Shown piece after piece: positions 11,780-62,163 of a stretch of DNA of 64,000 nt. Origin of the DNA: Haplodiscus bocki (taxonomy: Eukaryota); contig OZ296651.1 in the NCBI GenBank assembly GCA_965655095.1, positions 108,562,001 through 108,626,000 on the forward strand, read 5' to 3'. Numbering within the stretch: the stretch's first letter is position 1; the number at the start of each line of letters is the position of its first letter. Below the pieces are notes generated by a model, which was not told the DNA's origin, made no database searches, and saw only the letters and a program-made list of their open reading frames with translations. The position numbers and the translations under genes are program-made.

Positions 11780-12770
11780 CAGTTTTTGGGATGAAATTGT
11801 TTTGTTCAGCATTAAAAATGCGTTTTTGATAGGAAAATTCTGGTTTTTCATGTTGATTTTGAATAATTACATGAGACTTTGGAAAACACATTTAGCTCGC
11901 AAAAACTACAAATCTTGAAAAAATACGCGTATCGTTTCACGAGTGATGTTCACCGGCTGATGTTATACTTACTGGATTCAGACGTTGGCGAAATTTAAAG
12001 GAACACCTGAGACAAATTAAGCAAAAACTGATTACTCTTAAATTTGCACGCTTCAAAATCTTCGTCGGTGAAAAATTTTTCTTCCAATTAAAAGACGGCC
12101 GTCACTTAGCTGAAAAAACTAACACTCAAATTTTGGGAGCCCGCGTACGTTTTGCTTACTTGGAGAGACATCATATAATACTTAATTTGAATTTTTTGTT
12201 CGAAACACAGTCTTGATATAATTGCGCAGCGAGCTAACTAAAACACATCTCAAATTGCTGACCAGACCACTACAATCAGAACCTCGGCTACCAGCAGAAC
12301 GTCTTCGTGTCGCACGAGATTTGAAACAACTCAAAGTACATTTTGTCAGGTTAAATCTGCCGTGCATAAGTTATTACTGCTGTGTACACTTCTATTATAC
12401 TTTCACTACGTTCGACACTTTAATTTTCCAAAAAAAGATAATACGTGTTTTGTTTCAGAATCTGTTTTGACTTTCTAATGCTTCCTTTACCAGAGGTGTT
12501 TTTACTAAACTACATCGTCATTTTTCACACTCTGAGATTGTTCTCTGTTATTTAGCAATTCAAAGCTTAAACTTGGTTATCAACTTTGAAAAACGGCAGG
12601 TTAGTTATGATTAATACTCCTAACTTTCAACCTAGATATCCCTAAAAATTTGATGTTTGTTAATTAGCACAATGGGTGAAATTTGAACATTTTTCTCTCA
12701 TGTGAAATATGATAAAAAATTAATACTATCAATTTTGATGTTATTCTTTCGAAATTGGCGGTTAAGCAAG
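11780..12770 (+). repeat. Dispersed repeat family A, uninterrupted copy (empty-site paralogue of the Polinton insertion)
   Basis: Matches 18820-18920, 19691-19883 and 49397-50125 in order: CATGAGACTTTG, CTGATGTTATACTTACTGGA, GGAACACCTGAGAC | CAAAATCTTCG, GTCACTTAGCTGAA, GTTAGTTATGATTAATACTCCT, AATTGGCGGT.AAGCA. Confidence 0.85.
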
Positions 12771-18920: not shown

Positions 18921-19690
18921 AACAAGAGAGCCGGCTACCACCGGCATATTTTGCGCCTTCCCATTTTTGAAAGAGAGGCTTTCAAAAAAATGAAAACGTT
19001 GTTTTTTGTCAAAAAAAATCTTTCTTCATCAAAATTTCTATTTTTTCCAACGTTCAAAGTTTTCTCATTTTTTTTTGCCCAAAAAACCTCATAAATAGGC
19101 CGGAAGACATTTTTGGGAAATGAAACCATCTCATTCTCATTCTACAGCAAATTTGCCATCATTAACGATTTTGAAAGAAATTCAAGTTTTGTTCGAAAAC
19201 CCATCTATTTTTCCAAAAAAACCCAAGTTTTGAACGGCTTGAGAAATCTTACCGTTTTAGCCTCGACAATTTGGCAATCTTGGCAATCTCGCAACCTTGG
19301 TAATCTTGGCAATTTTGGCAATGGTGCCAGTTGTGGCAATTGTGGAAATTATGGAATTTTTTGCGATTTTGGCTAGTTTGGCAACTTTGGAAATTTTGGC
19401 CACTTCATTCATTTGGCCATTTAGACATTTTTGGCAATTTTGGGCATTTTGACCATTTTGGCCAGTCTGGTCATTTTGGTTGTTTCAGCCATTTTGACCA
19501 TTTTGGCCATTTGCACATGTTGGCCATTTAGGCCATTTTGGCAATCTTGACAAAAAATTCTGACAAACGCGAGCCAGCATCGTTTTTTTTGCGCGAGCTC
19601 AATTGGCAAACATCGGCTTCAAAGAAGGCACCTATTTGAGAGGAAGATATTGCTTTTCATATCTTAAAGAATTTCGCGCAAAATATCAAA
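18921..19690 (-). mobile_element. Non-autonomous Helentron-associated (HINE/DINE-1-like) element
   Basis: 11-bp subterminal inverted repeats ATATTTTGCGC (18946-18956) and GCGCAAAATAT (19676-19686); GCCGG-n6-CCGGC hairpin beside one of them; minus-strand end CTTGTT; internal 9-bp minisatellite; absent from the paralogous repeat at ~11855-11870. Confidence 0.6.
19268..19550. repeat. Degenerate 9-bp minisatellite (TTGGCAATT/TTGGCCATT)
   Basis: Directly visible tandem units; they explain the repetitive GN/GHF ORFs in the ORF track. Confidence 0.9.
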
Positions 19691-19883
19691 CGCATGAGAC
19701 TTTGAAAAAACGTTTAGCTCGCAAATAATCAAGTCTCAAAAAAATACGCGAATGATTACATGAGTCACATGACGTTCAGCGCCTGATGTTATACTTACTG
19801 GAATCTGACGACGACCAACTTAGATGGAACACCTGAGACGAGTGAGCAAAAGCTTAACACTTTTAAAATTGATAGAGCACAAT

Positions 19884-19950
19884 AGTAGTTAGGAAAACGA
19901 CTGGCCTTTCAACGGGGGGGGGGGGGTTCTTGTTTCAAAATCGGAGGACC
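19884..19950 (+). repeat. Left TIR
   Basis: AGTAGTTAGGAAAACGACTGGCCTTTCAAC(G)13TTCTTGTTTCAAAATCGGAGGACC versus the reverse complement of the right end, AGTAGTAAGAAAAACAGCCGGCTTTTCAAC(G)5TCCTTGTTTCAAAATTTTAGGACC. Confidence 0.9.
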
Positions 19951-20009
19951 TCTTTAGGGGTCCTCTAATTTTGAAGCAAGGACCCACCTCCATTGAAAGG
20001 CCGGCCGTT
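19895..20009. repeat. ~115-bp imperfect palindrome (fold-back of the left TIR)
   Basis: AACGACTGGCCTTTCAA...TTCTTGTTTCAAAAT.GGAGGACCTC-TTTA-GGGGTCCTC.AATTTTGAAGCAAGGA...TTGAAAGGCCGGCCGTT. Confidence 0.9.
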
Positions 20010-20201
20010 CAATTTTCTTATGACCCCTCCCTAAAACGACAGTCCGGTGAAATTCGGACCGGTAATGTCGAGTGCCGCTCGGGCTTCGGAAATATTAACA
20101 GATGGTCTGCATCTCGTGATTGCAAGTCGTCCGGTTGATTTAATTCGTCGGATCACACTCGTGTCGCGCGACGCACAACATAAAGTTAATTCGAGAACAC
20201 G

Positions 20202-20588
20202 GTGGACTCCAAAACAATGGAACCAAACGAAATAGACGTAAACAAAGTGCAACAAATTTTCCATCGATTTTCTAATGATAAAACTGACGATTTTGATGTC
20301 TACAGAAAATATGTTTTGAGCTTTTGTTTGAATTACCTGAGAAATACTACTCTTAACGTAACACTAAAACAACTCCAAAGCTTGCTGAAAGAAGAGCCAC
20401 AAATCGAATGTGGATTGTTTTATAAGCATTGTAAATTTTACAGAGTACTTGTGATTGTTTCTAACGCTCAAACTGTACTTGGAATTTTCTGTGACACAGA
20501 AGACTGTTTGGATACGAGAAATAGGTTCAAAAGATTTTGGTCAGCTTTAATTCATCCTCTCTGGAGTATTTTGAGTTTGAAATTATAA
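20202..20588 (+). CDS. 128-aa hypothetical protein of the element (also 27612-27998, 35040-35426, 42460-42846)
   Basis: Open in all four units and first ORF after the TIR; no recognisable motif. Confidence 0.4.
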   Translation: MDSKTMEPNEIDVNKVQQIFHRFSNDKTDDFDVYRKYVLSFCLNYLRNTTLNVTLKQLQSLLKEEPQIECGLFYKHCKFYRVLVIVSNAQTVLGIFCDTEDCLDTRNRFKRFWSALIHPLWSILSLKL

Positions 20589-20617
20589 CTCCAAGCGCAC
20601 CGGTTTAATCAGTTGGA

Positions 20618-21144
20618 ATGTTGAACGAATACGGAAACATTGTTTTTGATTTTGAGAATGTTACTTATAACATTTTTTTGAGAGAGAATTGACTGTTTAT
20701 GGAAAAAGTTTCCAAGACACGCTGCTTTTCAAACCACCGAAAGAACTGCTTGACTGTTCAACCACACATCAACGCTCGATAAATTTGCTTACAAAAAGAG
20801 TTGATCGTACGGACTGGAATAGTGGTTTTTACCCTTACAAGTTCATTAGCGAAGATTTTGTTTGCCCTCGAATTCGTTTTCCCAAATTGAGAGTTTTAGT
20901 TAAAGTAAAAAATAGAGTGGGTTTCCTTCACAAGCATTTGGAAAACGTTCGAGACTCCGTTGAACTTGCTTATCCACCAGGAAAAGAACTACGCAAAGAT
21001 TTTGTGATTTCGTGTTCTAATCACAACAAAATTGAACCCTGGAAACCCAACAATAAGTTTTGGCATTGAAGTAAAATAAAGTCGGCGTCCTTTTATCAGC
21101 AGATAGAAAAATCCAAATATGGAAGCACTGCCGGAAGCCAATAA
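20618..21144 (+). pseudogene. Putative DnaQ/DEDD-like exonuclease-fold protein of a Polinton-like element (repeated in each unit)
   Basis: Reconstructed across one frameshift and one stop: IVFDFE...FLRE/LTV...LLFKPP...W.SG.YPY...KG...FL...C..H...H(*)S. DxE resembles an ExoI motif. Family assignment is from recall of similar ORFs. Confidence 0.45.
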
Positions 21145-22767
21145 CATGTGCTAATGTTACTTCCTCATTTAAGCGTCTCCTTGTTACAAGCAGCAAACAA
21201 TAGTCATTTGGTCGTTTTGACCAAAGACGAGTATGTTGGAAATGGTTTTGACAGAGTTATGAGAAGAGATGTGATCCAATTGTTTCTCTCAGGGTACTAC
21301 TTACCAAAGTCTGCGTTTGGTGTTCTTGACGCCGGAATTTTGAATAACATGAGTCAGCAGAATCCGAGACCAGGCAGAAAAAGTTCTCCAATATGAAAAA
21401 AACCACCCTTCAACTTTCCCAACAAGAAATCCCCACGTCTGATAGAAATTCATGCAGGCTGTTATAATTTACCCAAAGAAATTAGGCGAATTACGAAAGG
21501 ATAGAAAGCGGATAAGATTTGCTTCTTCCCTGCAATCGGCAAGGAAACCTCAAAATTCAGGATTGAATTAAAAACTGAAGACACCGAAGGAACTCTTTCA
21601 TTACTTTGCATGACACGAAAGAGTTTAAATTACCTAGTAGTAGAAGTTTGTAGAATCAACCAACATGTGTATGACTTGTAGACTGATCATTTCTAAAACT
21701 ATTGGACCGTTTTCTTCTTTCTTTTGACACTTTTATTAGTATACCGTTCTTTAGACACTCAAAGACAAGATTTTTTTTTGTTCAAGTGTACTTCTGTACT
21801 CCTCAACATTGCCAAACCAGAAAAACTGTGTAAAGAGACACACGCTGAAAAGCATCCTTTTTTGTGCTTAGAAAAGCTGCATGCTTTTCTGCAATGCACT
21901 TTTGAAAACGAATCCTGATTGCTTTTAAAAGGATTCTTTTTTTTTAAATTGAATTTCTCTTCATGTAATTGTTTTGAGTAAAGTGCTCAGAGCCAGTGGA
22001 CGTTGCAGATCTAATACCCATTCATAAACTGGTTTATGATGAGAACATTGTAGAGATACCCCCTGGGAAGTTTTGCAACTCTACCACGAAGCATTTTTGA
22101 AGTTCGAGTTCGAAGAGATTTTTTCATAGTATCAAAATTCAAAAAAGTTTACCGGAAAAAGGACCATCTTTGAAAAAAAATTTGATCGTTTTAGCCAAAA
22201 AAACAAACATTTCTCTACCTTGAAGAAAAATACCGAGCCAACAGTTGGCACACCAACAGAAAAAAAGACGTTGAATCCGCTAATGAAAACCGCGGGACGC
22301 CAGCTTCAAAGTGTGTTGAGAGTTTGGTCAAAGAATGCGTATTTCGAAAACGGGTACTCTGACAAAAGCTGTCAATTTTCTCAACAACTGTTGGTCGGAT
22401 CGGTCTAAAAAGTTGCATGCAGGTCCGCGAGGCAGTTTTGGAAAAACTAAATTGGAACAAAGGGGGCCCTTCAAAGTCACCTTCCTTCAAAAATTGCAAA
22501 AATCAACTTCCATTACGACTCGCAGTATAAAGTCAAACCGTCAACAAACAGAGATTAAAATAGTTTGAGGACTCTTGGTTTGCGACCAGCCGCCGTTTCC
22601 CAAAAAAGCGTCAAGGATACCATATAAGGTGATCGGATCAGAATTCAAAGAACACCAGAGTCCCTCCATCCTCATACCATAAATGATTGTCGTCTCGTCA
22701 ATTTATCGGAGCGCAGAAAGAATTTATGATCGCAATCTTAACTTTCAGAAGCACTCGACTTGTCAAA

Positions 22768-25700
22768 ATGGCTGCGGAGTGTGATGTTTGCTTCAAAACA
22801 AAGAGCTTTCCGACAAAGTTGCGCCAACACAAGCAAAAATTACACAAAGTACTTCCGAAAACTTTTTTTTTGATGTTGGGACTGTGACTATGAAAATACC
22901 TCGTTGGTTTTCATGAAGAAACACTTTTTACTAAACCATGCATTTATAATAGTCAATCATTGTTGTTTCTGTAACCTCATTTATGGAGATGGCGCCAAAG
23001 TTTCGAATCATGCCGAAAGCGTCCACTCTTTACCAACAAAATTCACACAGAGTCAAGGCGGACATTGAAAGAATCACCGGTTACCTAACAAACAGAAACA
23101 GCATTCACAGGATCATTACAAGTGTATCAACTGAAGTGAAGAATTACATCAGTTGATTTCTTAGAGTTGTTGGTCAGGAGAAATAATCATATACAAACCT
23201 GAATTAGAAAAAAAGCTCGAGGTGGTTTCAAGAAATTCAAAAACCCACAGAAGTGAAACTAGTGAAACCGGAACCTGACCAAACCTCACAAGAAACTATT
23301 ACAACACACACAAGCACTGACCGTGTACCAATTTGGTTTTCTAAAATCTCAGATGACGTTTTTTATCGTTTGATCGAGCAACTGACATTGGCTTTGTGTA
23401 CCTTTGCATCGCATGATAGTCGATGGATTTTGTGGGAAATAATAAACTTAATAGTAAAATTTATATCATTTTCAGCAGATTAGGGCTGATCCTACATCGC
23501 TTGTCTCATCAATCTTCGTAATTGTGAGTCTCTAATCAAAAATCGCAACGTTGCCGACAAAAACTGCTTTTTCTATTGTCATACTGTTGGATACCATCTA
23601 TACACGGAGGAGTTTCTCATCGACATAAGTTCTTTGCGATGCAAAACAAGCCCCGATATCTATAATCCCATTATCAACCCGTTAACCAAAAAGCATCTGG
23701 GTGAGTTGTCAAGGCCAATGCCATTCAATCAAATTAGTTGCTATGAAAAAGTCAACGAGGTTCAAGTAATTATCTGCAGAATTAAAAAAAGATTTTGTGC
23801 CCTTGAGGGTCTCTTAAGTTCGATGTGATTTGATAATGGATTTATTACTGTTGTCAAACGATGGCTCTCATCACTATGTTTTGATTACCAATTTGAAACG
23901 TTTTGTCAAATTCATCAAAAAAGCAGAGTAGGTGGAGAGGTTATCTATGCCGAAACTGTTTCAATGTTTGCAATTCAGTTGAAAGTTTACAAAGTCACAA
24001 AATCCATTTTTACGAAAATGAAGCCGCGACAAAAGTTCTGCCCGATCATAAGAAAAAACTTCATTAATTAAAAAGTACAAAAACCACTTGAATTGTACTT
24101 CTCGTTATTTTTTTCGCCACCGAAGCCCTTCTCATTCCTATCCATACATGTGACTCCTTACCAAACGCCATTGAGCAAACGAAATTGGAAAAAAAATCCC
24201 TCTGGCTATGGATTCAATTTTGTTGAGCATGGAAAAGACATAGTTTTGTTCAAGAGAGTCAAAAGAGAACACAACTTTCGAAGATTTTATCAAAGAGTTG
24301 GAAAAAAACGAAGGATATTTCTAACCGTATACAATGTTTCTGATTCTGCAGAAGTAACCCTCCAGTACCAGAAGAATCTGTCGGTGACTGCTGGATTCGC
24401 ATTAAACCTTTCGAAATAGACCAGGGAGAATTATTGGACCATTGTCATTATAGTGGTAAGTTCTTAGGTTAGGCTCATTATCAATGTAATCTGAAGAGAA
24501 AATCAATCAACTTCACCCCAGTGGTTGCCCACAACATCGCAGGCTATGACATTTATCAAATATGAACAATAATCAAGAAGAGCAATTCAAACAACAAGTT
24601 CTCTGTGATTCCCACAACAAATGAGAAGTGCATTTCTTTCACATTTTCCGTATGGGTAAACTTTTTTTTATGGAAAAAAAAGGAGTGATGAAAAATGTTT
24701 ATGAAGAAATGCAATTCTTGGATTCTTTCATTTCAATACCACAGTACCTAGAGAACCTAGCTCAAAGAAAAATTTATATACCTCGACTGTCAATTCAATA
24801 TGCAAAAAACAGTATCACAATTTGACTTACTGAAAAGGAAAGGAGTTTACCTCTACACATACATGAACATTTTCGACAAATAAGTTCTAGAAAAAAAATA
24901 CTTCCAAAACGGTTTTGGAAACACACACTTTAAGTTGGAGTAATTACTGTTTCCGACGGAGACTGGGAGCATGCAAATCTTGTATTCCAAGAGTTTGATT
25001 GCAAAACTTTAGTCGACTAACATGATTTTTATTTACACAAAGATGTTCTCTTTCTAGCGTCCCTCTTTGAAGTGTCTCGCTAAGTCTGCTATGCCATTTA
25101 CGGTCTGGACTGTGTACATTTCTATTTGGTATCCAATTTGTCTGCTGAAGCCTTCCTCAGAAACTGTAACGGTGGAATTGAACTTTTAAGCGATCGAGAA
25201 CTTTTGGAAATGGCCGAAAACTTGATTCGCGGAGGATTTTCTCGAATGTTTGGAAAACGTAATTTTGAAGCAAATAACAAAATTTTACCAAACCATAACC
25301 CCTCAGTGAAACAGAAATTTGGTTTTTTCATTGATGCAAACAACTTATACGGCGGAATCGTGGAAAACTTTCCTTTACCTTTAAAAAACTTTGTTTTGAG
25401 AACAGAAGGAAAACTTGACCTGCATGGAAGTCTAAGTACGACAGATGACCCCTCAGTTGGATAATTTTTGCAGGCGAATGTTCATTTTCTCGAGCCTTTG
25501 GACGATTTTCACCCATATTTCCCATTGGCATCAACCAAAGAGGAAAAATTTATTTCCGGCTCGAAGAATATCAGAAGAACACGCTGAAATTGTTTGAAAC
25601 AAAAAGATTTTCCACAAAAAAGTAAAAAAAAACGGATTCAAAAAGTTTAGGACGAAACCAATATTTATACCTTGAAATAGCCTACTTTGAATTTATATTT

Positions 25701-26897
25701 TGAACTGGGATTAGAAGTCAAAGAAACTGACGAAGTGTTACATTTCAATGCACCAAAAAAGCTCAAGCCTTACATGCAACTGAACACTGCAAAACGGAAA
25801 GCCTCGGCAACAAATTTGAGGAGAATTTCTACAAGTTGATGAATTTTTCGGCATTCGGAAAAACGATGAAAAGTAAAGCAAAAGGATTGGTTGTTGAGAT
25901 AGTTACTACAAGGACCCAGTTGCTCGCGCAAACGAAGAAGAAGTGGATGAAAACACACGAGACTTAGGATTGTTTTCGCTGCTAAGACATTCAAACCACT
26001 GAAATTCTACCAAAAAAACCTACGATAGTTGGTGCCACAAAATTGGATATGCCAAATCGACACATGTATTGGTTCCACTATAAACATACGAAAGCAAATG
26101 TCAAAATCCTAGCTTTTTATTCCGACACAGATTCTCTGATTTACGAGATTGAGTCGGAAGATTTGTACAAAGACCTCAAAAACAATGATGCAATTTAACA
26201 AGAGTATGAGTTCTCGAATCATAACGAAGGCATTGGGCGGCACTCTAAACATCAAAACCTAGAAACACTCGAGTTTCCAGATGAATTAGGTGGGAAAACC
26301 ATACACAGTATCCTTGCTATGAAAACAAAACTATTTTAAATTTCAATGGGAGATAAACAGAAACTCTCTGCAGAAGGAACCACCAAAAAAGCGCAGAAAA
26401 GTCTGAAGCACCCAGTTTTCTTTCGAATTCTTGCAATAGATGCTTTACTCAGATTTTTGAATTATACAAAAAACTGTCAAAAACATACTGTATTTACCTT
26501 ACAAACCAAAAAAATGTCGTTGAGCTGTTTCGATGATAAACAATATGTTCTGCTGAACGGCGTAGGCGCTTTGCCTTTCGGACACTACTCCTTGCGAGAA
26601 GATGCAATGTTCCGGGATGTTTGCGGGGACATTGAATGGGGGAATGATGTATTGAGAGAGAAAAGGCAGAAAGATGACGAGGATCTTCACCCTAATGAAG
26701 CAAACGATTCGGAACTACCGATATTTTCACCTCCTCATCGCGAACTTTTACAAAATCCAATCACCGTTGACAATTTTTTTGATTTAATCGATCTTTTAGA
26801 ATCTTCAGATACTGAATTCGATCCACCAAGTACAGAACCGAATTTATTTTTGGACATGGAAGCCTCAGAAGTCTTTTCGAATTGTCCTCCTCCCTGA
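22768..26897 (+). pseudogene. polB: Protein-primed family-B DNA polymerase (pPolB), unit 1
   Basis: Motifs in the expected order across stops and frameshifts: N-terminal CxxC..H..H fingers; HYVLI; LCRNCF; DHCHYSGKFLG*AHYQCNL; HNIAGYD (ExoII); FLDSF; RKGVY.Y; YL..DV (ExoIII); IRGG; DANNLYG (motif A); YKLMNFSAFGKT (motif B); YSDTDS (motif C); SLSCFDDK; PFGHY. Confidence 0.93.
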
Positions 26898-27430
26898 ATA
26901 AGAGTCACATTTAACAGCTTTTAATTTTATACAGTGTTTTTCAACAAAAATATGTTTGTGGAGTAATTCAGCGTTTAATTCCGTATTTTGAAAAGACAAA
27001 ATAGCTGGTTCTGTTTTTAGTTGGAATTCCAAGGTGTAATTGCTAAGTTAGAGCTTTCAGTTTCTTAAAACTGAACCACCAGAATTTTTATTGTACACGA
27101 AAGTAAGGGAACGCCTAATGAAAGCATTTCTTGAGTGGAGCAATTTTTGTAAGTATTTTTAAAAGCACTACCACCGCCACTACAGATCAGCGAAGTCTAA
27201 TTAGCATTCCTGTTACCAACTAGCAATTTGGGAATGTTTTATCAATAACGTTGGGATTGCTTGAAAGTATTAGTTAATCCACCACAATTTTACAATTGAC
27301 TTCTACTACAACAAAGTCTCAGGGTTAGTTCGTACCAAACTTACAGACATTCAAATAGAACCGAGAATGTATATGCTTTTACGTCTAGTTTCAAAAACTT
27401 AAACTTCTTCCTTTTATGGATACGTCCTAA

Positions 27431-30400
27431 TGACCACTTCCTAAAACGACAGTCCTGTGAAATGCGGACCAGTAATGTCGAGTGCCGCTCGCGCTTCGGA
27501 AATCTTAACAGATGGTCTGCATCTCGTGATTGCAAGTCGTCCGGTTGATTTAATTCGTCGGATCACACTCGTGTCGCGCGACGCACAACATAAAGTTAAT
27601 TCGAGAACACGGTGGACTCCAAAACAATGGAACCAAACGAAATAGACGTAAACAAAGTGCAACAAAGTTTCCATCGATTTTCTAATGATAAAACTGACGA
27701 TTTTGATGTCTACAGAAAATATGTTTTGAGCTTTTGTTTGAATTACCTGAGAAATACTACTCTTAACGTAACACTAAAACAACTCCAAAGCTTGTTGAAA
27801 GAAGAGCCACAAATCGAATGTGGATTGTTTTATAAGCATTGTAAATTTTACAGACTACTTGTGATTGTTTCTAACGCTCAAACTGTACTTGGAATTTTCT
27901 GTGACACAGAAGACTGTTTGGATACGAGAAATAGGTTCAAAAGATTTTGGTCAGCTTTAATTCATCCTCTCTGGAGTATTTTGAGTTTGAAATTATAACT
28001 CCAAGCGCACCGGTTTAATCAGTTGGAATGTTGAACGAATACGGAAACATTGTTTTTGATTTTGAGAATGTTACTTATAACATTTTTTTGAGAGAGAATT
28101 GACTGTTTATGGAAAAAGTTTCCAAGACACGCTGCTTTTCAAACCACCGAAAGAACTGCTTGACTGTTCAACCACACATCAACGCTCGATAAATTTGCTT
28201 ACAAAAAGAGTTGATCGTACGGACTGGAATAGTGGTTTTTACCCTTACAAGTTCATTAGCGAAGATTTTGTTTGCCCTCGAATTCGTTTTCCCAAATTGA
28301 GAGTTTTAGTTAAAGGAAAAAATAGAGTGGGTTTCCTTCACAAGCATTTGGAAAACGTTCGAGACTCCGTTGAACTTGCTTATCCACCAGGAAAAGAACT
28401 ACGCAAAGATTTTGTGATTTCGTGTTCTAATCACAACAAAATTGAACCCTGGAAACCCAACAATAAGTTTTGGCATTGAAGTAAAATAAAGTCGGCGTCC
28501 TTTTATCAGCAGATAGAAAAATCCAAATATGGAAGCACAGCCGGAAGCCAATAACATGTGTCTAATGTTACTTCCTCATTTAAGCGTCTCCTTGTTACAA
28601 GCAGCAAACAATAGTCATTTGGTCGTTTTGACCAAAGACGAGTATGTTGGAAATGGTTTTGACAGAGTTATGAGAAGAGATGTGATCCAATTGTTTCTCT
28701 CAGGGTACTACTTACCAAAGTCTGCGTTTGGTGTTCTTGACGCCGGAATTTTGAATAACATGAGTCAGCAGAATCCGAGACCAGGCAGAAAAAGTTCTCC
28801 AATATGAAAAAAACCACCCTTCAACTTTCCCAACAAGAAATCCCCACGTCTGATAGAAATTCATGCAGGCTGTTATAATTTACCCAAAGAAATTAGGCGA
28901 ATTACGAAAGGATAGAAAGCGGATAAGATTTGCTTCTTCCCTGCAATCGGCAAGGAAACCTCAAAATTCAGGATTGAATTAAAAACTGAAGACACCGAAG
29001 GAACTCTTTCATTACTTTGCATGACACGAAAGAGTTTAAATTACCTAGTAGTAGAAGTTTGTAGAATCAATCAACATGTGTATGACTTGTAGACTGATCA
29101 TTTCTAAAACTATTGGACCGTTTTCTTCTTTCTTTTGACACTTTTATTAGTATACCGTTCTTTAGACACTCAAAGACAAGATTTTTTTTTGTTCAAGTGT
29201 ACTTCTATACTCCTCAACATTGCCAAACTAGAAAAACTGTGTAAAGAGACACACGCGGAAAAGCATCCATTTTTGTGCTCAGAAAAGCTGCATGCTTTTC
29301 TGCAATGCTTTTTTGGAAACGAATCCTGATTGCTTTTAAAACGATACTCTTTGTTTTTAAAAAATTGAATTTCTCTTCATGTATTTGTTTTGCGTAAAGT
29401 GCTCAGAGCCAGTGGACGTTGCAGATCTAATACCCATTCATAAACTGGTTTATGATGAGAACATTGTAGAGAGACCCCCTGGGAAGTTTTGCAACTCTAC
29501 CACGAAGCATTTTTGAAGTTCGAGTTTGAAGAGACTTTTTCATAGTATCAAAATTCAAAAAAGTTTACCGGAAAAAGGACCATCTTTGAAAAAAAATTTG
29601 ATCGTTTTAGCCAAAAAAACAAACATTTCTCTACCTTGAAGAAAAATACCGAGCCGACAGTTGGCACACCAACAGAAAAAAAGACGTTGAAGCCGCTAAT
29701 GAAAACCGCGGGACGCCAGCTTCAAAGTGTGTTGAGAGTTTGGTCAAAGAATGCGTATTTCGAAAACGGGTACTCCGACAAAAGCTGTCAATTTTCTCAA
29801 CAACTGTTGGTCGGATCGGTCTAAAAAGTTGCATGCAGGTCCGCGAGGCAGTTTTGGAAAAACTAAATTGGAACAAAGGGGGCCCTTCAAAGTCACCTTC
29901 CTTCAAAAATTGCAAAAATCAACTTCCATTACGACTCGCAGTATAAAGTCAAACCGTCAACAAACAGAGATTAAAATAGTTTGAGGACTCTTGGTTTGCG
30001 ACCAGCCGCCGTTTTCCAAAAAAAGCGTCAAGGATACCATATAAGGTGATCGGATCAGAATTCAAAGAACACCAGAGTCCCTCCACCCTCATACCATAAA
30101 TGATTGTCGTCTCGTCAATTTATAGGAGCGCAGAAAAAATTTATGATCGCAATCTTAACTTTCAGAAGCACTCGACTTGTCAAAATGGCTGCGGAGTGTG
30201 ATGTTTGCTTCAAAACATAGAGCTTTCCGACAAAGTTGCGCCAACACAAGCAAAAATTACACGAAGTACTTCCGAAAATTTTTTTTTGATGTTCGGACTG
30301 TGACTATGAAAATACCTCGTTGGTTTTCATGAAGAAACACTTTTTACTAAACCATGGATTTATAATAGTCAATCATTGTTGTTTCTGTAACATCATTTAT

Positions 30401-33400
30401 GGAGATGGCGCCAAAGTTTCGAATCATGCCGAAAGCGTCCACTCTTTAGCAACAAAATTCACACAGAGGCAAGGCGGACATTGAAAGAATCACCGGTTAC
30501 CTAACAAACAGAAACAGCATTCACAGGATCATTACAGGTGTATCAACTGAAGTGAAGAATTACATCAGTTGATTTCTTAGAGTTGTTTTGGTCAGGAGAA
30601 ATAATCATATACAAACCTGAATTAGAAAAAAAACTCGAGTTGGTTTCAAGAAATTCAAAAACCCACAGAAGTGAAACTAGCGAAACCGGAACCTGACCAA
30701 ACCTCACAAGAAACTATTACAACACACACAAGCACTGACCGTGTACCAATTTGGTTTTCTAAAATCTCAGATGACGTTTTTTATCGTTTGATCGAGCAAC
30801 TGACATTGGCTTTGTGTACCTTTGCATCGCATGATAGTCGATGGATTTTGTGGGAAATAATAAACTTAATAGTAAAATTTATATCATTTTCAGAAGATTA
30901 GGGCTGATCCTACATCGCTTGTCTCATCAATCTTCGTAATTGTGAGTCTCTAATCAAAAATCGCAACGTTGCCGACAAAAACTGCTTTTTCTATTGTCAT
31001 ACTGTTGGATACCATCTATACACGGAGGAGTTTCTCATCGACATAATTTCTTTGCGATGCAAAACAAGCCCCGATATCAAAAATCCCAGTATCAACCCGT
31101 TAACCAAAAAGCATCTGGGTGAGTTGTCAAGGCCAATGCCATTCAATCAAATTAGTTGCTATGAAAAAGTCAACGAGGTTCAAGTAATTATCTGCAGAAT
31201 TATAAAAAGATTTTGTGCCCTTGAGGTTCTCTTAACTTCGATGTGATTTGATAATGGATTTATTACTGTTGTCAAACGATGGCCCTCATCACTATGTTTT
31301 GTTTACCAATTTGAAACGTTTTGTCAAATTCATCAAAAAAGCAGAGTAGGTGGAGAGGTTAACTATGCAGAAACTGTTTCAATGTTTGTAATTCAGTTGA
31401 AAGTTTACAAAGTCACAAAATCATTTTTTACGAAAATGAAGCCGCGACAATAGTTCTGCCCGATCATTAGAAAAAGCTTCATTAATTAAAAAGTACAAAA
31501 AGCACTTGATTTGTACTTCTCGTTTTTTTTTGTCACCGAAGCGCTTCTCGTTCCTATCCATACATGTGACTCCTTACCAAATGCCATTGGGCAAACGATA
31601 TTGGAAAAAAATAATCCCTCTGGCTATGGATTCAATTTTGTTGAGCATGGAAAAGACATAGTTTTGTTCAACAGAGTCAAAAGAGAACACAACTTTCGAA
31701 GATTTTATCAAAGAAATGGAAAAAAACGAAGGATATTTCTAACCGTATACAATGTTTCTGATTCTGCAGAAGTAACCCTCCAGTACCAGAAGAATCTGTC
31801 GGTGACTGCTGGATTCGCATTAAACCTTTCGAAATAGACCAGGGAGAATTATTGGACCATTGTCATTATAGTGGTAAGTTCTTAGGTTAGGCTCATTATC
31901 AATGTAATCTGAAGAGAAAATCAATCAACTTCACCCCAGTGGTTGCCCACAACATCGCAGGCTATGACATTTATCAAATATGAACAATAATCAAGAAGAG
32001 CAATTCAAACAACAAGTTCTCTGTGATTCCCACAACAAATGAGAAGTGCATTTCTTTCACATTTTCCGTATGGGTAAACTTTTTTTTATGGAAAAAAAAG
32101 GAGTGATGAAAAATGTTTATGAAGAAATGCAATTCTTGGATTCTTTCATTTCAATACCACAGTACCTAGAGAACCTAGCTCAAAGAAAAATTTATATACC
32201 TCGACTGTCAATTCAATATGCAAAAAACAGTATCACAATTTGACTTACTGAAAAGGAAAGGAGTTTACCTCTACACATACATGAACGTTTTCGACAAATA
32301 AGTTCTAGAAAAAAAATACTTCCAAAACGGTTTTGGAAACACACACTTTAAGTTGGAGTAATTACTGTTTCCGACGGAGACTTGGAGCATGCAAATCTTG
32401 TATTCCAAGAGTTTGATTGCAAAACTTTAGTCGACTAACATGATTTTTATTTACACAAAGATGTTCTCTTTCTAGCCTCCCTCTTTGAAGTGTCTCGCTA
32501 AGTCTGCTATGCCATTTACGGTCTGGACTGTGTACATTTCTATTTGGTATCCAATTTGTCTGCTGAGGCCTTCCTCAGAAACTGTAACGGTGGAATTGAA
32601 CTTTTAAGCGATCGAGAACTTTTGGAAATGGCCGAAAACTTGATTCGCGGAGGATTTTCTCGAATGTTTGGAAAACGTAATTTTGAAGCAAATAACAATA
32701 TTTTACCAACCCATAACCCCTCAGTGAAACAGACATTTGGTTTTTTTATTGATGCAAACAACTTATACGGCGGAATCGTGGAAAACTTTCCTTTACCTTT
32801 AAAAAACTTTGTTTTGAGAACAGAAGGAAAACTTGACCTGCATGGAAGTCTAAGTACGACAGATGACCCCTCAGTTGGATAATTTTTGCAGGCGAATCTT
32901 CATTTTCTCGAGCCTTTGGACGATTTTCACCCATATTTCCCATTAGCATCAACCAAAGAGGAAAAATTTATTTCCGGCTCGAAGAATATCAGAAGAACAC
33001 GCTGAAATTGTTTGAAACAAAAAGATTTTCCACAAAAAAGTAAAAAAAACGGATTCAAAAAGTTTAGGACGGAACCAATAGTTATACCTTGAAATAGCCT
33101 ACTTTGAATTTATATTTTGAACTGGGATTAGAAGTCAAAGAAACTGACGAAGTGTTACATTTCAATGCACCAAAAAAGCTCAAGCCTTACATGCAACTGA
33201 ACACTGCAAAACGGAAAGCCTCGGCAACAAATTTGAGGAGAATTTCTACAAGTTGATGAATTTTTCGGCATTCGGAAAAACGATGAAAAGTAAAGCAAAA
33301 GGATTGGTTGTTGAGATAGTTACTACAAGGACCCAGTTGCTCGCGCAAACGAAGAAGAAGTGGATGAAAACACACGAGACTTAGGATTGTTTTCGCTGCT

Positions 33401-34858
33401 AAGACATTCAAACCACTGAAATTCTACCAAAAAAACCTACGATAGTTGGTGCCACAAAATTGGATATGCCAAATCGACACATGTATTGGTTCCACTATAA
33501 ACATACGAAAGCAAATGTCAAAATCCTAGCTTTTTATTCCGACACAGATTCTCTGATTTACGAGATTGAGTCGGAAGATTTGTACAAGGACCTCAAAAAC
33601 AATGATGCAATTTAACAAGAGTATGAGTTCTCGAATCATAACGAAGGCATTGGGCGGCACTCTAAACATCAAAACCTAGAAACACTCGAGTTTCCAGATG
33701 AATTAGGTGGGAAAACCATACACAGTATCCTTGCTATGAAAACAAAACTATTTTAAATTTCAATGGGAGATAAACAGAAACTCTCTGCAGAAGGAACCAC
33801 CAAAAAAGCGCAGAAAAGTCTGAAGCACCCAGTTTTCTTTCGAATTCTTGCAATAGATGCTTTACTCAGATTTTTGAATTATACAAAAAACTGTCAAAAA
33901 CATACTGTATTTACCTTACAAACCAAAAAAATGTCGTTGAGCTGTTTCGATGATAAACAATATGTTCTGCTGAACGGCGTAGGCGCTTTGCCTTTCGGAC
34001 ACTACTCCTTGCGAGAAGATGCAATGTTCCGGGATGTTTGCGGGGACATTGAATGGGGGAATGATGTATTGAGAGAGAAAAGGCAGAAAGATGACGAGGA
34101 TCTTCACCCTAATGAAGCAAACGATTCGGAACTACCGATATTTTCACCTCCTCATCGCGAACTTTTACAAAATCCAATCACCGTTGACAATTTTTTTGAT
34201 TTAATCGATCTTTTAGAATCTTCAGATACTGAATTCGATCCACCAAGTACAGAACCGAATTTATTTTTGGACATGGAAGCCTCAGAAGTCTTTTCGAATT
34301 GTCCTCCTCCCTGAATAAGAGTCACATTTAACAGCTTTTAACTTTATACAGTGTTTTTCAACAAAAATATGTTTGTGGAGTAATTCAGCGTTTAATTCCG
34401 TGTTTTGAAAAGACAAAATAGCTGGTTCTGTTTTTAGTTGGAATTCCAAGGTGTAATTGCTAAGTTAGAGCTTTCAGTTTCTTAAAACTGAACCACCAGA
34501 ATTTTTATTGTACACGAAAGTAAGGGAACGCCTAATGAAAGCATTTCTTGAGTGGAGCAATTTTTGTAAGTATTTTTAAAAGCACTACCACCGCCACTAC
34601 AGATCAGTGAAGTCTAATTAGCATTCCTGTTACCAACTAGCAATTTGGGAATGTTTTATCAATAACGTTGGGATTGCTTGAAAGTATTAGTTAATCCACC
34701 ACAATTTTACAATTGACTTCTACTACAACAAAGTCTCAGGGTTAGTTCGTACCAAACTTACAGACATTCAAATAGAACCGAGAATGTATATGCTTTTACG
34801 TCTAGTTTCAAAAACTTAAACTTCTTCCTTTTATGGATGCGTCCTAAAATCTTTCTTA
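27431..34858 (+). repeat. Tandem unit 2 (7428 bp)
   Basis: Near-identical to unit 1. Confidence 0.97.
30185..34314 (+). pseudogene. polB: pPolB pseudogene, unit 2
   Basis: Same motifs and essentially the same lesions as unit 1. Confidence 0.93.
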
Positions 34859-37800
34859 TGACCACTTCCTAAAACGACAGTCCTGTGAAATGCGGACCAG
34901 TAATGTCGAGTGCCGCTCGCGCTTCGGAAATCTTAACAGATGGTCTGCATCTCGTGATTGCAAGTCGTCCGGTTGATTTAATTCGTCGGATCACACTCGT
35001 GTCGCGCGACGCACAACATAAAGTTAATTCGAGAACACGGTGGACTCCAAAACAATGGAACCAAACGAAATAGACGTAAACAAAGTGCAACAAAGTTTCC
35101 ATCGATTTTCTAATGATAAAACTGACGATTTTGATGTCTACAGAAAATATGTTTTGAGCTTTTGTTTGAATTACCTGAGAAATACTACTCTTAACGTAAC
35201 ACTAAAACAACTCCAAAGCTTGTTGAAAGAAGAGCCACAAATCGAATGTGGATTGTTTTATAAGCATTGTAAATTTTACAGACTACTTGTGATTGTTTCT
35301 AACGCTCAAACTGTACTTGGAATTTTCTGTGACACAGAAGACTGTTTGGATACGAGAAATAGGTTCAAAAGATTTTGGTCAGCTTTAATTCATCCTCTCT
35401 GGAGTATTTTGAGTTTGAAATTATAACTCCAAGCGCACCGGTTTAATCAGTTGGAATGTTGAACGAATACGGAAACATTGTTTTTGATTTTGAGAATGTT
35501 ACTTATAACATTTTTTTGAGAGAGAATTGACTGTTTATGGAAAAAGTTTCCAAGACACGCTGCTTTTCAAACCACCGAAAGAACTGCTTGACTGTTCAAC
35601 GACATATCAACGCTCGATGAATTTGCTTACAAAAAGAGTTGATCGTACGGACTGGAATAGTGGTTTTTACCCTTACAAGTTCATTAGCGAAGATTTTGTT
35701 TGCCCTCGAATTCGTTTTCCCAAATTGAGAGTTTTAGTTAAAGGAAAAAATAGAGTGGGTTTCCTTCACAAGCATTTGGAAAACGTTCGAGACTCCGTTG
35801 AACTTGCTTATCCACCAGGAAAAGAACTACACAAAGATTTTGTGATTTCGTGTTCTAATCACAACAAAATTGAACCCTGGAAACCCAACAATAAGTTTTG
35901 GCATTGAAGTAAAATAAAGTCGGCGTCCTTTTATCAGCAGATAGAAAAATCCAAATATGGAAGCACAGCCGGAAGCCAATAACATGTGTCTAATGTTACT
36001 TCCTCATTTAAGCGTCTCCTTGTTACAAGCAGCAAACAATAGTCATTTGGTCGTTTTGACCAAAGACGAGTATGTTGGAAATGGTTTTGACAGAGTTATG
36101 AGAAGAGATGTGATCCAATTGTTTCTCTCAGGGTACTACTTACCAAAGTCTGCGTTTGGTGTTCTTGACGCCGGAATTTTGAATAACATGAGTCAGCAGA
36201 ATCCGAGACCAGGCAGAAAAAGTTCTCCAATATGAAAAAAACCACCCTTCAACTTTCCCAACAAGAAATCCCCACGTCCGATAGAAATTCATGCAGGCTG
36301 TTATAATTTACCCAAAGAAATTAGGCGAATTACGAAAGGATAGAAAGCGGATAAGATTTGCTTCTTCCCTGCAATCGGCAAGGAAACCTCAAAATTCAGG
36401 ATTGAATTAAAAACTGAAGACACCGAAGGAACTCTTTCATTACTTTGCATGACACGAAAGAGTTTAAATTACCTAGTAGTAGAAGTTTGTAGAATCAACC
36501 AACATGTGTATGACTTGTAGACTGATCATTTCTAAAACTATTGGACCGTTTTCTTCTTTCTTTTGACACTTTTATTAGTATACCGTTCTTTAGACACTCA
36601 AAGACAAGATTTTTTTTTGTTCAAGTGTACTTCTATACTCCTCAACATTGCCAAACTAGAAAAACTGTGTAAAGAGACACACGCGGAAAAGCATCCATTT
36701 TTGTGCTCAGAAAAGCTGCATGCTTTTCTGCAATGCTTTTTTGAAAACGAATCCTGATTGCTTTTAAAAGGATTCTTTTTTTTAAATTGAATTTCTCTTC
36801 ATGTAATTGTTTTGAGTAAAGTGCTCAGAGCCAGTGGACGTTGCAGATCTAATACCCATTCATAAACTGGTTTATGATGAGAACATTGTAGAGATACCCC
36901 CTGGGAAGTTTTGCAAATCTACCACGAAGCATTTTTGAAGTTCGAGTTTGAAGAGACTTTTTCATAGTATCAAAATTCAAAAAAGTTTACCGGAAAAAGG
37001 ACCATCTTTGAAAAAAAATTTGATCGTTTTAGCCAAAAAAAACAAACATTTCTCTACCTTGAAGAAAAATACCGAGCCAACAATTGGCACACCAACAGAA
37101 AAAAAGACGTTGAATCCGCTAATGAAAACCGCGGGACGCCAGCTTCAAAGTGTGTTGAGAGTTTGGTCAAAGAATGCGTATTTCGAAAACGGGTACTCTG
37201 ACAAAAGCTGTCAATTTTGTCAACAACTGTTGGTCGGATCGGTCTAAAAAGTTGCATGCAGGTCCGCGAGGCAGTTTTGGAAAAACTAAATTGGAACAAA
37301 GGGGGCCCTTCAAAGTCACCTTCCTTCAAAAATTGCAAAAATCAACTTCCATTACGACTCGCAGTATAAAGTCAAACCGTCAACAAACAGAGATTAAAAT
37401 AGTTTGAGGACTCTTGGTTTGCGACCAGCCGCCGTTTTCCAAAAAAAGCGTCAAGGATACCATATAAGGTGATCGGATCAGAATTCAAAGAACACCAGAG
37501 TCCCTCCACCCTCATACCATAAATGATTGTCGTCTCGTCAATTTATAGGAGCGCAGAAAAAATTTATGATCGCAATCTTAACTTTCAGAAGCACTCGACT
37601 TGTCAAAATGGCTGCGGAGTGTGATGTTTGCTTCAAAACATAGAGCTTTCCGACAAAGTTGCGCCAACACAAGCAAAAATTACACGAAGTACTTCCGAAA
37701 ATTTTTTTTTGATGTTCGGACTGTGACTATGAAAATACCTCGTTGGTTTTCATGAAGAAACACTTTTTACTAAACCATGGATTTATAATAGTCAATCATT

Positions 37801-40800: not shown

Positions 40801-42278
40801 TTAGGATTGTTTTCGCTGCTAAGACATTCAAACCACTGAAATTCTACCAAAAAAACCTACGATAGTTGGTGCCACAAAATTGGATATGCCAAATCGACAC
40901 ATGTATTGGTTCCACTATAAACATACGAAAGCAAATGTCAAAATCCTAGCTTTTTATTCCGACACAGATTCTCTGATTTACGAGATTGAGTCGGAAGATT
41001 TGTACAAAGACCTCAAAAACGATGATGCAATTTAACAAGAGTATGAGTTCTCGAATCATAACGAAGGCATTGGGCGGCACTCTAAACATCAAAACCTAGA
41101 AACACTCGAGTTTCCAGATGAATTAGGTGGGAAAACCATACACAGTATCCTTGCTATGAAAACAAAACTATTTTATATTTCAATGGGAGATAAACAGAAA
41201 CTCTCTGCAGAAGGAACCACCAAAAAAGCGCAGAAAAGTCTGAAGCACCCAGTTTTCTTTCGAATTCTTGCAATAGATGCTTTACTCAGATTTTTGAATT
41301 ATACAAAAAACTGTCAAAAACATACTGTATTTACCTTACAAACCAAAAAAATGTCGTTGAGCTGTTTCGATGATAAACAATATGTTCTGCTGAACGGCGT
41401 AGGCGCTTTGCCTTTCGGACACTACTCCTTGCGAGAAGATGCAATGTTCCGGGATGTTTGCGGGGACATTGAATGGGGGAATGATGTATTGAGAGAGAAA
41501 AGGAAGAAAGATGACGAGGATCTTCACCCTAATGAAGCAAACGATTCGGAACTACCGATATTTTCACCTCCTCATCGCGAAGTTTTACAAAATCCAATCA
41601 CTGTTGACAATTTTTTTGATTTAATCGATCTTTTAGAATCTTCAGATACTGAATTCGATCCACCAAGTACAGAACCGAATTTATTTTTGGACATGGAAGC
41701 CTCAGAAGTCTTTTCGAATTGTCCTCCTCCCTGAATAAGAGTCACATTTAACAGCTTTTAATTTTATACAGTGTTTTTCAACAAAAATATGTTTGTGGAG
41801 TAATTCAGCGTTTAATTCCGTGTTTTGAAAAGACAAAATAGCTGGTTCTGTTTTTAGTTGGAATTCCAAGGTGTAATTGCTAAGTTAGAGCTTTCAGTTT
41901 CTTAAAACTGAACCACCAGAATTTTTATTGTACACGAAAGTAAGGGAACGCCTAATGAAAGCATTTCTTGAGTGGAGCAATTTTTGTAAGTATTTTTAAA
42001 AGCACTACCACCGCCACTACAGATCAGTGAAGTCTAATTAGCATTCCTGTTACCAACTAGCAATTTGGGAATGTTTTATCAATAACGTTGGGATTGCTTG
42101 AAAGTATTAGTTAATCCACCACAATTTTACAATTGACTTCTACTACAACAAAGTCTCAGGGTTAGTTCGTACCAAACTTACAGACATTCAAATAGAACCG
42201 AGAATGTATATGCTTTTACGTCTAGTTTCAAAAACTTAAACTTCTTCCTTTTATGGATGCGTCCTAAAATCTTTCTTA
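34859..42278 (+). repeat. Tandem unit 3 (7420 bp)
   Basis: Near-identical to units 1 and 2. Confidence 0.97.
37608..41734 (+). pseudogene. polB: pPolB pseudogene, unit 3
   Basis: Same motifs. One stop shared by units 1 and 2 (TTTTAA) is TTTTAT here, which lengthens the ORF to 41156-41734. Confidence 0.93.
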
Positions 42279-48200: not shown

Positions 48201-49348
48201 ACATTCAAACCACTGAAATTCTACCAAAAAAACCTACGATAGTTGGTGCCACAAAATTGGATATGCCAAATCGACACATGTATTGGTTCCACTATAAACA
48301 TACGAAAGCAAATGTCAAAATCCTAGCTTTTTATTCCGACACAGATTCTCTGATTTACGAGATTGAGTCGGAAGATTTGTACAAAGACCTCAAAAACAAT
48401 GATGCAATTTAACAAGAGTATGAGTTCTCGAATCATAACGAAGGCATTGGGCGGCACTCTAAACATCAAAACCTAGAAACACTCGAGTTTCCAGATGAAT
48501 TAGGTGGGAAAACCATACACAGTATCCTTGCTATGAAAACAAAACTATTTGAAAACAAAAGATGTATTGAGAGAGAAAAGGAAGAAAGATGACGAGGATC
48601 TTCAACCTAATGAAACAAACGATTCGGAACTACCGATATTTTCACCTCCTCATCGCGAACTTTTACAAAATCCAATCACCGTTGACAATTTTTTTGATTT
48701 AATCGATCTTTTAGAATCTTCAGATACTGAATTCGATCCACCAAGTACAGAACCGAATTTATTTTTGGACATGGAAGCCTCAGAAGTCTTTTCGAATTGT
48801 CCTCCTCCCTGAATAAGAGTCACATTTAACAGCTTTTAATTTTATACAGTGTTTTTCAACAAAAATATGTTTGTGGAGTAATTCAGCGTTTAATTCCGTG
48901 TTTTGAAAAGACAAAATAGCTGGTTCTGTTTTTAGTTGGAATTCCAAGGTGTAATTGCTAAGTTAGAGCTTTCAGTTTCTTAAAACTGAACCACCAGAAT
49001 TTTTATTGTACACGAAAGTAAGGGAACGCCTAATGAAAGCATTTCTTGAGTGGAGCAATTTTTGTAAGTATTTTTAAAAGCACTACCACCGCCACTACAG
49101 ATTAGCGAAGTCTAATTAGCATTCCTGTTACCAACTAGCAATTTGGGAATGTTTTATCAATAACGTTGGGATTGCTTGAAAGTATTAGTTAATCCACCAC
49201 AATTTCACAATTGACTTCTACTACAACAGAGTCTCAGGGTTAGTTCGTACCAAACTTACAGACATTCAAATAGAACCGAGAATGTATATGCTTTTACATC
49301 TAGTTTCAAAAACTTAAACTTCTTCCTCTTATGGATGGGTCCTAAAAT
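42279..49348 (+). repeat. Tandem unit 4 (~7.07 kb, two internal deletions)
   Basis: Deletions of ~46 bp at ~44130 and ~309 bp at ~48550 relative to the other units. Confidence 0.97.
44986..48812 (+). pseudogene. polB: pPolB pseudogene, unit 4 (C-terminal deletion)
   Basis: Motifs A, B and C present; the SLSCFDDK/PFGHY segment is deleted. Confidence 0.93.
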
Positions 49349-49396
49349 TTTGAAACAAGGACCCCCGTTGAAAAGCCGGCTGTTTTTCTTACTACT
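49338..49396 (-). repeat. Right TIR
   Basis: GGTCCTAAAATTTTGAAACAAGGACCCCCGTTGAAAAGCCGGCTGTTTTTCTTACTACT, followed by TSD CACAAT. Confidence 0.9.
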
Positions 49397-50125
49397 CACA
49401 ATAAAGCTACAAAATCTTCGGCAGTGAAGAATTTTTCTTCCAGTTGAAAGACGTCAGTCACTTAGCTGAAGAAAACTAAAAATTGAGATTTCGCAGTGTG
49501 CGTACATTCTGCGTATTTGGAGAGGCATCAAATTCTGCTTAGAGTGATGTGCTTGTTTAAAACTACAGTCTTGATATAATTCAACAGCGAGCTTGCTGAA
49601 ACACATCTGTGCTTGCTGACTAGACCGCTAAAATCAGAAAACGCAGCTGCCAGCAGAACGTCTTCGTATCGCACAAGATTTGAGTCAGCTCAAAGTACAT
49701 TTTGTCTAGTTAAAGGTGCCATGCATAAGTTACTTTTGCTGTCTACCCTTCGGTTACTTTTCCACTGCATTTCACATTTTACTGTTCAAAAAAAGATAGC
49801 AGGTGTTTTGCTTGAGATTCTGATTCTGTTTCGATTTTCTGTTGCTGTTTTCAAAGAGCGTTCTTAGTAAACTACATCGTCAATTTTGATACTCAGATTC
49901 GTTAGCAATTCAAAGTTTAAACTCGATTATCAACTTCGGCGAACTGCAAGTTAGTTATGATTAATACTCCTGAATTTGAAACTAAATATTCATAAATATT
50001 TGATGTTTGCTAATCAGCACAATGAGTGAAATTTGAAGAAATTTCTTTTCCAACCTGAAATACGACCAAAAAATGACGCTATTAATTTTGATGTTGTTTT
50101 CTCACAATTGGCGGTAAAGCACGAG
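49397..50125 (+). repeat. Repeat family A, right half of the interrupted copy
   Basis: Collinear with 12050-12770. Confidence 0.85.
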
Positions 50126-61036: not shown

Positions 61037-62163
61037 TTTTCTCTCCAGGAAAATTATGAAAGTTTTGTTCACATGGTTTTTTTTGTCATCGGCTTCAAAA
61101 AGACTTGGTTTACGATGAGGTTCATATTAATTGTATGAGAACTCAATTACTATAGTTCAAGAAATTCTTTTCTGTGATGGAAATCCTTATCCATTGTTAC
61201 TAAATCCATCAATCACAAGCGGAATAAATCTTTACTTCTTTTTGCCTTTTGTTTCAAAGTCAATACTATCTAGTAGATCCAAACTCTAAGTTTTGACAAG
61301 GTGTTTGACCTCAGTGTTACTTGTTTCGTAAATTTCCTCTGCAGGTTTAGATAAAACTTGTTTAATTACCATTTAAAAAAGACCTTGCTTTACCATTTAA
61401 AGCAGACAAACTTGATGTGCATGGTTTTTGATTTTTTTAAAACTGTATTCTTTTTCTCGTCTGCGATTTGAACTCGAATCGTTCAAATTTTTCATGTGAA
61501 AACGTATGAGATGTGTAGTCAAATATAAAGATATTCATTTTTTTATTACTCAAAATTGAAATTCGGTGGGCATTGGTATTGGGCTCTTTAGTAGCTTATG
61601 ATCTTGGGCGGACATGGATAGTGAAAAATTTATTTCCATCGGGCTCAAAATTTTCCTCTAACACTTGCCTAGAAACCAGTGAACAGCAACAGCGGCCCTA
61701 TCCTACTCACATTCTCTTAACCTTTCATCCTCCTTATCAACAGCTTCTACCTCAATTTCCTCAACTTCCCTGTGATATGGAGAAATTATTTCCTTGTTTT
61801 TACGCCATTTGATGAAATTGACGAAGGAGACAATGGAATCTAGGAAAACTATGAGATATTTGAAAGTTTTTGAAGAAGAAAAATGGGAACAGGCGAGGAT
61901 GATCGCGTTGTTGTCGGTGTTCGCTGATTTCTTGGTTTTTATCAAATACCATTGTGTAAAAATATAATTATCAACACTCCCAAATCCCGCAATATTGTGC
62001 TATTTTGCATTTATCAAAATGCAAAAAATGGAAATATTTGACCATATCACAGGTGAGTTGGAGAATTGGACAAACTAAGAGAAAATTAGGTAGAATCTGT
62101 GAGCGAGGGTGACTAAAATTAGTAGTAGAAGTCGGAGATGATCAGACAGGGGGGAAGACCCTC

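Follow-up and report, generated by a model that had tools for sequence, protein, structure and literature searches.

The left-end fold-back of a decayed Polinton in Haplodiscus bocki is a family trait, probably made by template switching

The fold-back found at the left terminus of an element in Haplodiscus bocki, within the 64,000-nucleotide stretch analyzed here (the window; contig OZ296651.1, positions 108,562,001 to 108,626,000), is a family trait, and the window copy is ordinary in this respect. The element is a decayed Polinton/Maverick belonging to a group of related copies designated family A. We favor, with a probability of about 0.7, an explanation in which the element's own polymerase switches template during strand-displacement replication, which would make the fold-back, even out its arms and invert its loop, with priming retained at the intact end. 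This process would be frozen in families A and B, active in family C and absent from family C2 of the same genome.

The window element extends from 19884 to 49396, with AGTAGT...ACTACT termini, and is flanked on both sides by CACAAT, a 6-bp target duplication. The host repeat that it interrupts has a further copy at 11870-12768. The terminal features are as follows.

19878..19883, forward strand: left target-site duplication CACAAT, the same hexamer as at the right flank
19884..19951, forward strand: left terminal repeat, forming the outer hairpin arm; starts with AGTAGT, first 12 nt unpaired
19952..19957, forward strand: hairpin loop, in one orientation in 30/30 family-A loci scored
19958..20020, forward strand: inner hairpin arm, an inverted left repeat with fixed family-wide differences from the outer arm
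20018..20030, forward strand: inner 13 bp of the terminal repeat, recurring here at the putative point of return to the original template
49333..49396, forward strand: right terminal repeat in its short form, lacking a fold-back; last bases ACTACT, z -1.1
49397..49402, forward strand: right target-site duplication CACAAT, matching the left hexamer

Folding of 19884-20020 produced one long hairpin at 19896-20009 (-37.3 kcal/mol), with a stability of z -7.7 and none of 200 shuffles equally good. The fold-back announced for this interval in the preliminary description is thus real, with a stem slightly shorter than the ~55 bp proposed there (47 pairs, including G-T pairs). The 4-nt loop TTTA (19953-19956) is a fair reading given the C-G pair that closes it, the computed structure opening 6 nt. 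The two arms share 74.6% identity over 118 columns. Comparison within the window also bore out that the inner arm, 19958-20020, is a direct repeat of the right terminal repeat at 49337-49391 (77.8% over 63 columns, E 9e-9). The interval 19589-20091 is spanned by a single contig with zero differences in runs X1 and X2 and one gap in X4, and 19736-20096 by a single contig with zero differences in run X3. Contigs crossing flank, hairpin and body were therefore found in all four runs, which are public, come from one study and may be the source of the assembly itself.

Regarding the order of the segments, the short right end of family A consists of an outer part of 52 nt, an inner part of 13 nt and the body. 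The left end reads outer part, variant inner part, loop, inverted copy of both, and the inner 13 nt once more. The inverted copy does not reach the terminal AGTAGT, and the 13-bp inner part recurs at 20018-20030, after it. As the inverted copy ends in TTA and the repeated inner part starts with TTA, the two share a 3-nt match. This forward-backward-forward order, with its match at the point of return, would be the signature of a template switch, in which the polymerase would leave its template, copy the terminal repeat in the reverse direction and then resume on the original strand. The fold-back of family A likely arose in this way once, in the family ancestor, during replication; the argument for this origin is drawn from the anatomy of the end. 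A template-switch product had been proposed for the window copy itself, and the anatomy agrees with such a mechanism, acting in the ancestor of the family.

The assignment to Polintons is supported by the end motif, (AGT)2 or (AG)3, present in the window repeats, by the 6-bp length of the CACAAT/CACAAT duplication and by the following gene remnants.

20674..21030, forward strand: decayed stretch homologous to the left-end ORF found in families B and C (tblastn E 2e-15)
22874..26660, forward strand: decayed gene of a protein-primed DNA polymerase B with an HNH/endonuclease-VII-like insert, with many stops and frameshifts

A window fragment of the polymerase matched PF03175-bearing proteins (E 9e-51). 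Direct Pfam scanning of 19 window fragments gave no match, scans of decayed fragments being almost blank, and an ORF of family C carries PF03175 itself (E 2e-12). Relatives elsewhere in this genome, 13.5-16 kb long, have ATPase, integrase, capsid-like and protease-like genes. In the full-length family-A copies, the integrase was recognized by rve at E 1e-6, under the Pfam cut-off, and the packaging ATPase by relatives having PF04665 (A32-type); the integrase and ATPase genes are deleted from the window copy. A 404-aa ORF of family C, with a homologue in family A, was assigned by Atlas (0.98) to a cluster in which 22% of members have the DJR-like PF21738, at a recognition value of 2145, below the 2300 mark. 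The minor capsid and protease labels are our presumption from gene order and known motifs, the Pfam scan giving no match. One family-C element contains, close to its right end, a frame (L163:3457-3960, reverse strand) with the N- and C-terminal domains of ribosomal protein S5 (E 3e-8 and 1e-10), possibly a captured host gene.

The hairpin used as query matched at least 40 loci, including the window's own (40 candidates scored). Because such a search favors hairpin-bearing ends, a second one was performed with body-only DNA from the left and from the right. On each side 30 of the 40 matches were examined, 26 of them at other loci, the window's own making up 4 of the 30 on the left. Among the 26 left ends, which include two duplicate pairs and a second version of the window insertion on C1220, the fold-back was whole in 23 and internally deleted in 3, and no plain end was found. 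The right ends were short in 20 of 26, long with a full hairpin in 4, and without terminus in 2. Family-A right ends bearing the full hairpin include L129, L130, L136, L140 and L152, and the copy at C4:74416873-74429721 has a hairpin at both ends, with a target duplication matching at 5 of 6 positions. The hairpin of these long right ends was possibly copied from the left end; on the family-A tree, the 4 long copies need 4 changes, placed among unresolved basal branches. The nine other target-duplication pairs of the family comprise 3 identical, 5 with one mismatch and 1 unmatched. Full-length copies of 13.5-16 kb provided with target duplications have the same palindromic end, so that the fold-back, looked for in other family members as the preliminary description had advised, is family-wide and not unique to the window copy.

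The hairpin of family A is frozen. Its loop has a single orientation in 30/30 loci, which is at odds with the flip and flop forms expected of a parvovirus or poxvirus terminus. Mirrored arm changes are no commoner than chance (5 observed against 3.4 expected in 26 copies), and neither result gives a sign of ongoing rewriting in this family, whose copies are old, with about 10% divergence per branch. Families A and B both show fixed mismatches between the arms and loops without flips. One family-A copy, at L271-L272 (G000:C9:2.56-2.58 Mb), has an interior full of tandem repeats of one internal segment, spaced by ~1.2 kb.

An ATPase search revealed numerous Polinton families in the genome, and our comparison of ends covers the termini of families within it. 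In family B, the fold-back was present at 12/12 left ends, right ends were short in 9/9, and target duplications were found for 7 of 8 pairs. The family-B loop differs from that of A and is branched, and for two of three left ends the fold was no more stable than those of shuffled sequences (z -1.0 and -1.4). Since A and B differ at three stem pairs in both arms, the hairpin of each was built from its own repeat. The ATPase of family B is 69% identical to that of C and 68-76% identical to that of A. The elements of family C, 18-19 kb long with perfect 6-bp duplications in five copies, display a 96-pair stem that starts 10 nt inside the left terminus, and short right ends in 30/30 loci, about 20 of them independent. 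The terminal repeat of family C is unrelated in sequence to that of family A, with the same left-only hairpin design. The left-only fold-backs of families A, B and C were thus each made from the family's own terminal repeat.

No fold-back was detected in the 11 recognizable left ends of family C2, nor in the one end of family H and the two ends of family D; families E, F and G have just a small stem, in both terminal repeats. On an ATPase tree built without B, families A, C, C2 and H form one clade (97/99), in which the hairpin label changes twice. C2 is a close relative of C by its ATPase and is widespread in the genome without a hairpin, which indicates that the hairpin is dispensable. Viral contigs searched for relatives yielded none, and of six metagenome loci the four long enough to scan had neither a terminal hairpin nor a recognizable terminus.

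Several copies of these families deserve mention. A 2.4-kb deletion derivative of family C (L202/L350, G000:C6:88601818-88604222) has ends identical to those of young copies and a perfect 6-bp duplication, and therefore probably moved in trans. Copies of C2 (L167, L312-L319 and others) contain, by eye, an apparent short cysteine-rich, EGF-like frame ~400-600 nt inside the left end. Beside one C2 copy, on the reverse strand of its locus (L314:1980-2473), lies a 494-bp element whose ends read AGTAGT and whose inverted repeats measure 101 bp, possibly a Polinton-derived miniature element. A family-D element is located within several kb of inverted flanking DNA (L173-L175, G000:C9:2.364-2.392 Mb).

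In family C, the hairpin is likely rewritten by the elements during their own copying. Its 5-nt loop reads CTACA in 24 of 33 assembled loci and the reverse complement in 9, a search with an orientation-neutral pattern gave 20:8, and four further old copies have the CTACA form. Mapped onto the tree of family-C bodies, the loop label requires 7 changes and shows no clustering, 113 of 500 shuffles being as low, on a weakly resolved tree with 3 of 29 branches starred, these starred branches forcing only 2 changes. Within a 100/100 clade, L205/L206 and L207 carry opposite loops at less than 0.5% divergence. Mirrored arm changes amounted to 20, in 13 distinct pairs, versus 5.6 expected by a calculation without transition bias; three belong to L214, one pair is common to six copies, and the arms also contain 10 non-complementary double hits. 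At one locus (L226 / L261-L262, G000:C12 ~2.822 Mb), ~100 nt of body sequence have been copied into the fold-back, extending its arms to ~200 bp, and just the initial 23 nt of the terminus lie outside it, which we interpret as a second copy-back event.

In the template-switching explanation, the nascent strand of a free linear genome would jump from one arm to the other or onto the displaced strand. Such jumps would create the inverted copy and keep the arms alike, and those occurring between strands would invert the loop. The process would be ongoing in family C and have ended in A and B. Protein priming would persist at the true end, the hairpin being tolerated or mildly useful rather than a primer. 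The AGTAGT end and the 6-bp duplication are intact and lie outside the hairpin. The position of the hairpin on the same side in three families could reflect selection instead of a by-product.

The second-ranked explanation, unlikely in our view, makes the left hairpin a working primer or resolution site, with flip/flop as its trace, as in parvoviruses and poxviruses. The displaced strand would fold back, lose its short unpaired tail and be extended to a hairpin-closed or head-to-head form. A nuclease would then reopen it, the candidates being a helper-virus resolvase and the polymerase's own HNH/endonuclease-VII-like insert, and the terminal 10 nt would be restored from the right repeat. The flip/flop and mirrored arms of family C are what such a primer would leave, flip/flop being the mark of hairpin replication in AAV and vaccinia (PMC11575299, PMC8956199), and hairpin priming has been modeled for palindromic virophage and PLV ends (bioRxiv 10.64898/2026.07.28.741278). 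The hairpin also lies on the same side and starts 10-12 nt inside the end in both A and C, despite their unrelated repeats, and an HNH-like insert occurs in the polymerases of A, B, C and C2 while going undetected in the tested stretches of D-G. However, C2 has the same insert and spread widely without a hairpin, A and B spread despite frozen, imperfect hairpins, and the hairpin is internal to a protein-priming and integrase end that is itself intact. The endonuclease VII match is under the Pfam cut-off (E 2e-4), and a scan of 14 family-C frames revealed no Rep-type nuclease gene. As for a full head-to-head dimer, we rejected it at the L226 locus on C12, the lone apparent head-to-head junction, where the second arm extends just ~100 nt past the palindrome. 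We give similarly poor odds to a single animal Polinton clade with unlike ends, protein-primed on the right and self-folding on the left by hairpin transfer, with HNH reopening and flip/flop proviruses. If true, its replication would be a hybrid of adenovirus and parvovirus types, and family A its frozen relic.

Published systems share parts of this anatomy, as far as the accessible portions of the cited papers go. Like animal Polintons, the elements have (AGT)2 ends, a 6-bp duplication, a length of 13-19 kb, and genes for polymerase B, integrase and packaging ATPase together with putative capsid-like and protease-like ones (PMC8097293, PMC6431247, bioRxiv 10.1101/2023.08.22.554363). Their terminal repeats fall within the 46-1447 bp published for animal Polintons, and their HNH polymerase insert is also known from some nematode and oomycete Polintons. 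Polinton polymerases combine a terminal-protein domain with varied endonuclease inserts (PMC11161782). In contrast to animal Polintons so described, the elements have a long left-only fold-back, a direct repeat of the right end, and a flip/flop loop in family C. Surveys of vertebrate and nematode Polintons describe their repeats, end motifs and target duplications but mention no hairpins (PMC8097293; bioRxiv 10.1101/2023.08.22.554363); in the text available, the words "hairpin" and "palindrom" are absent from the former and "hairpin" from the latter. General background is provided, in their accessible parts, by PMC11296320, PMC6431247 and PMC4061559.

Halocafeteria virophages and PLVs bear terminal palindromes, mostly without a protein-primed polymerase, for which hairpin priming and accidental annealing have both been proposed (bioRxiv 10.64898/2026.07.28.741278). 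There, as here, the palindrome lies in the terminal repeat adjoining the target duplication. Their example measures 52 nt at the repeat extremities, the available text leaving flip/flop unmentioned, in contrast to 114-197 nt at one end, with polymerase B and loop isomers, in H. bocki. AAV ITRs and poxvirus telomeres have a terminal palindrome whose center occurs in flip and flop, a likeness limited to family C (PMC11575299, PMC8956199). In the portions seen, those hairpins form the very genome end, with Rep or the A22 resolvase resolving them, unlike the present ones, with their 10-12 unpaired terminal nt in the integrated form, no Rep found and hairpin-free relatives.

A search of openly accessible articles yielded no account of one-sided fold-backs, loop isomers or flipping in Polintons, though Repbase, subscription journals and supplements may describe such ends. 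The integrated copies with both loop orientations and mirrored changes constitute a fossil record of a replication intermediate that can be counted in any assembly. To our knowledge, Polinton replication has been modeled and never observed; three families with a hairpin at the left end alone, one of them showing flip/flop, make the question testable. A single genome offers the comparison set, with a hairpin that is rewritten (C), frozen (A, B) or lacking (C2, H, D). For annotation, such ends make terminal repeats seem unequal, and the direct repeat can be mistaken for a rearrangement.

Less probable again is a hairpin made once per family and inert, in which case repair or recombination in the host chromosome would have inverted the loop of family C and evened its arms once the element had inserted. 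Host repair is likely to act on a near-perfect 96-bp palindrome, and several copies have post-insertion deletions inside the hairpin. Against this, loops differ already at <0.5% divergence in C and never in the much older copies of A, a contrast weakened by the shorter, imperfect arms of A. It is very improbable that the two loop forms of family C are sequencing or assembly artifacts: palindromes are hard to sequence and assemble, and these forms are known from assembly alone, but the reverse form also occurs in old copies rich in arm mismatches (L215, L216, L219 and L240), and the window hairpin is reproduced by independent contigs.

The deletion and the tandem array of the window copy are later events, separate from the hairpin, and their features are listed below.

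20021..27430, forward strand: tandem unit 1 of 4, units being 97.9-99.3% identical
27431-34858, 34859-42278 and 42279-49345, forward strand: tandem units 2-4, ~7.4 kb each
22078..22084, forward strand: deletion breakpoint, ~7.1-kb internal loss of the ATPase, integrase, capsid-like and protease-like genes, common to the C1220 version
27410..27440, forward strand: junction of units 1 and 2, without hairpin and without a full repeat copy
34838..34868, forward strand: junction of units 2 and 3 (like form at ~42258-42288), right repeat fused to the end of the left inner arm

A single ~7.1-kb deletion at ~22080 accounts for the missing gene block in every unit. The reading first proposed, of a snap-back product or mini-element peculiar to the window copy and marking the loss of half its genome, is practically untenable: the direct repeat and hairpin are real and the unit is half as long as full copies, but the hairpin occurs in full-length copies and at at least 39 other loci, and the deletion lies 2.1 kb away from it. 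The same counts dispose of a copy-specific, defective-genome product, since the fold-back is present, not absent, in full-length relatives. A ~140-bp element made of terminal repeats only, or a MITE, was likewise rejected, as the inner end is without ACTACT and 30/30 loci examined continue into the left or right element body.

The C1220 version of the insertion (L079, L274, L275; G000:C1220), a divergent haplotype or an old segmental duplicate, has one 5.3-kb unit, the same target duplication and the same deletion, with flanks 86-89% identical. Given the single unit of C1220, and since family copies resemble one another far less than the window units do, the array is a late duplication of the host chromosome. 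In X1, contig depth at the array junction is ~2x that of the unique left end (52 versus 26). The junction fusion took place at a common AATTTT (49346-49351 / 20011-20016). Tandem integration of such elements is known, according to the accessible part of one report (bioRxiv 10.64898/2026.10.13.758929); an integrated viral concatemer is unlikely here, given the single unit of C1220 and the 98-99% likeness of the four units. In-register recombination between direct repeats is only a possible cause: the junctions keep no full repeat and show a 6-nt match, though recombination followed by a 40-nt deletion would yield the same junction sequence as observed. A ~300-bp deletion at 48554-48558 sets unit 4 apart from units 1-3. 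At least 10 tandem copies of a family-C right end with host flank, ~3 kb apart, occur at G000:C2:36.55-36.58 Mb (a subset of L363-L379) and represent a host-level tandem amplification like the window array. Elsewhere in the window, 62121-62685 and 129-277 contain tandem motif arrays and a stem like those of family-F terminal repeats and, judged by sequence, are probably the ends of another Polinton family.
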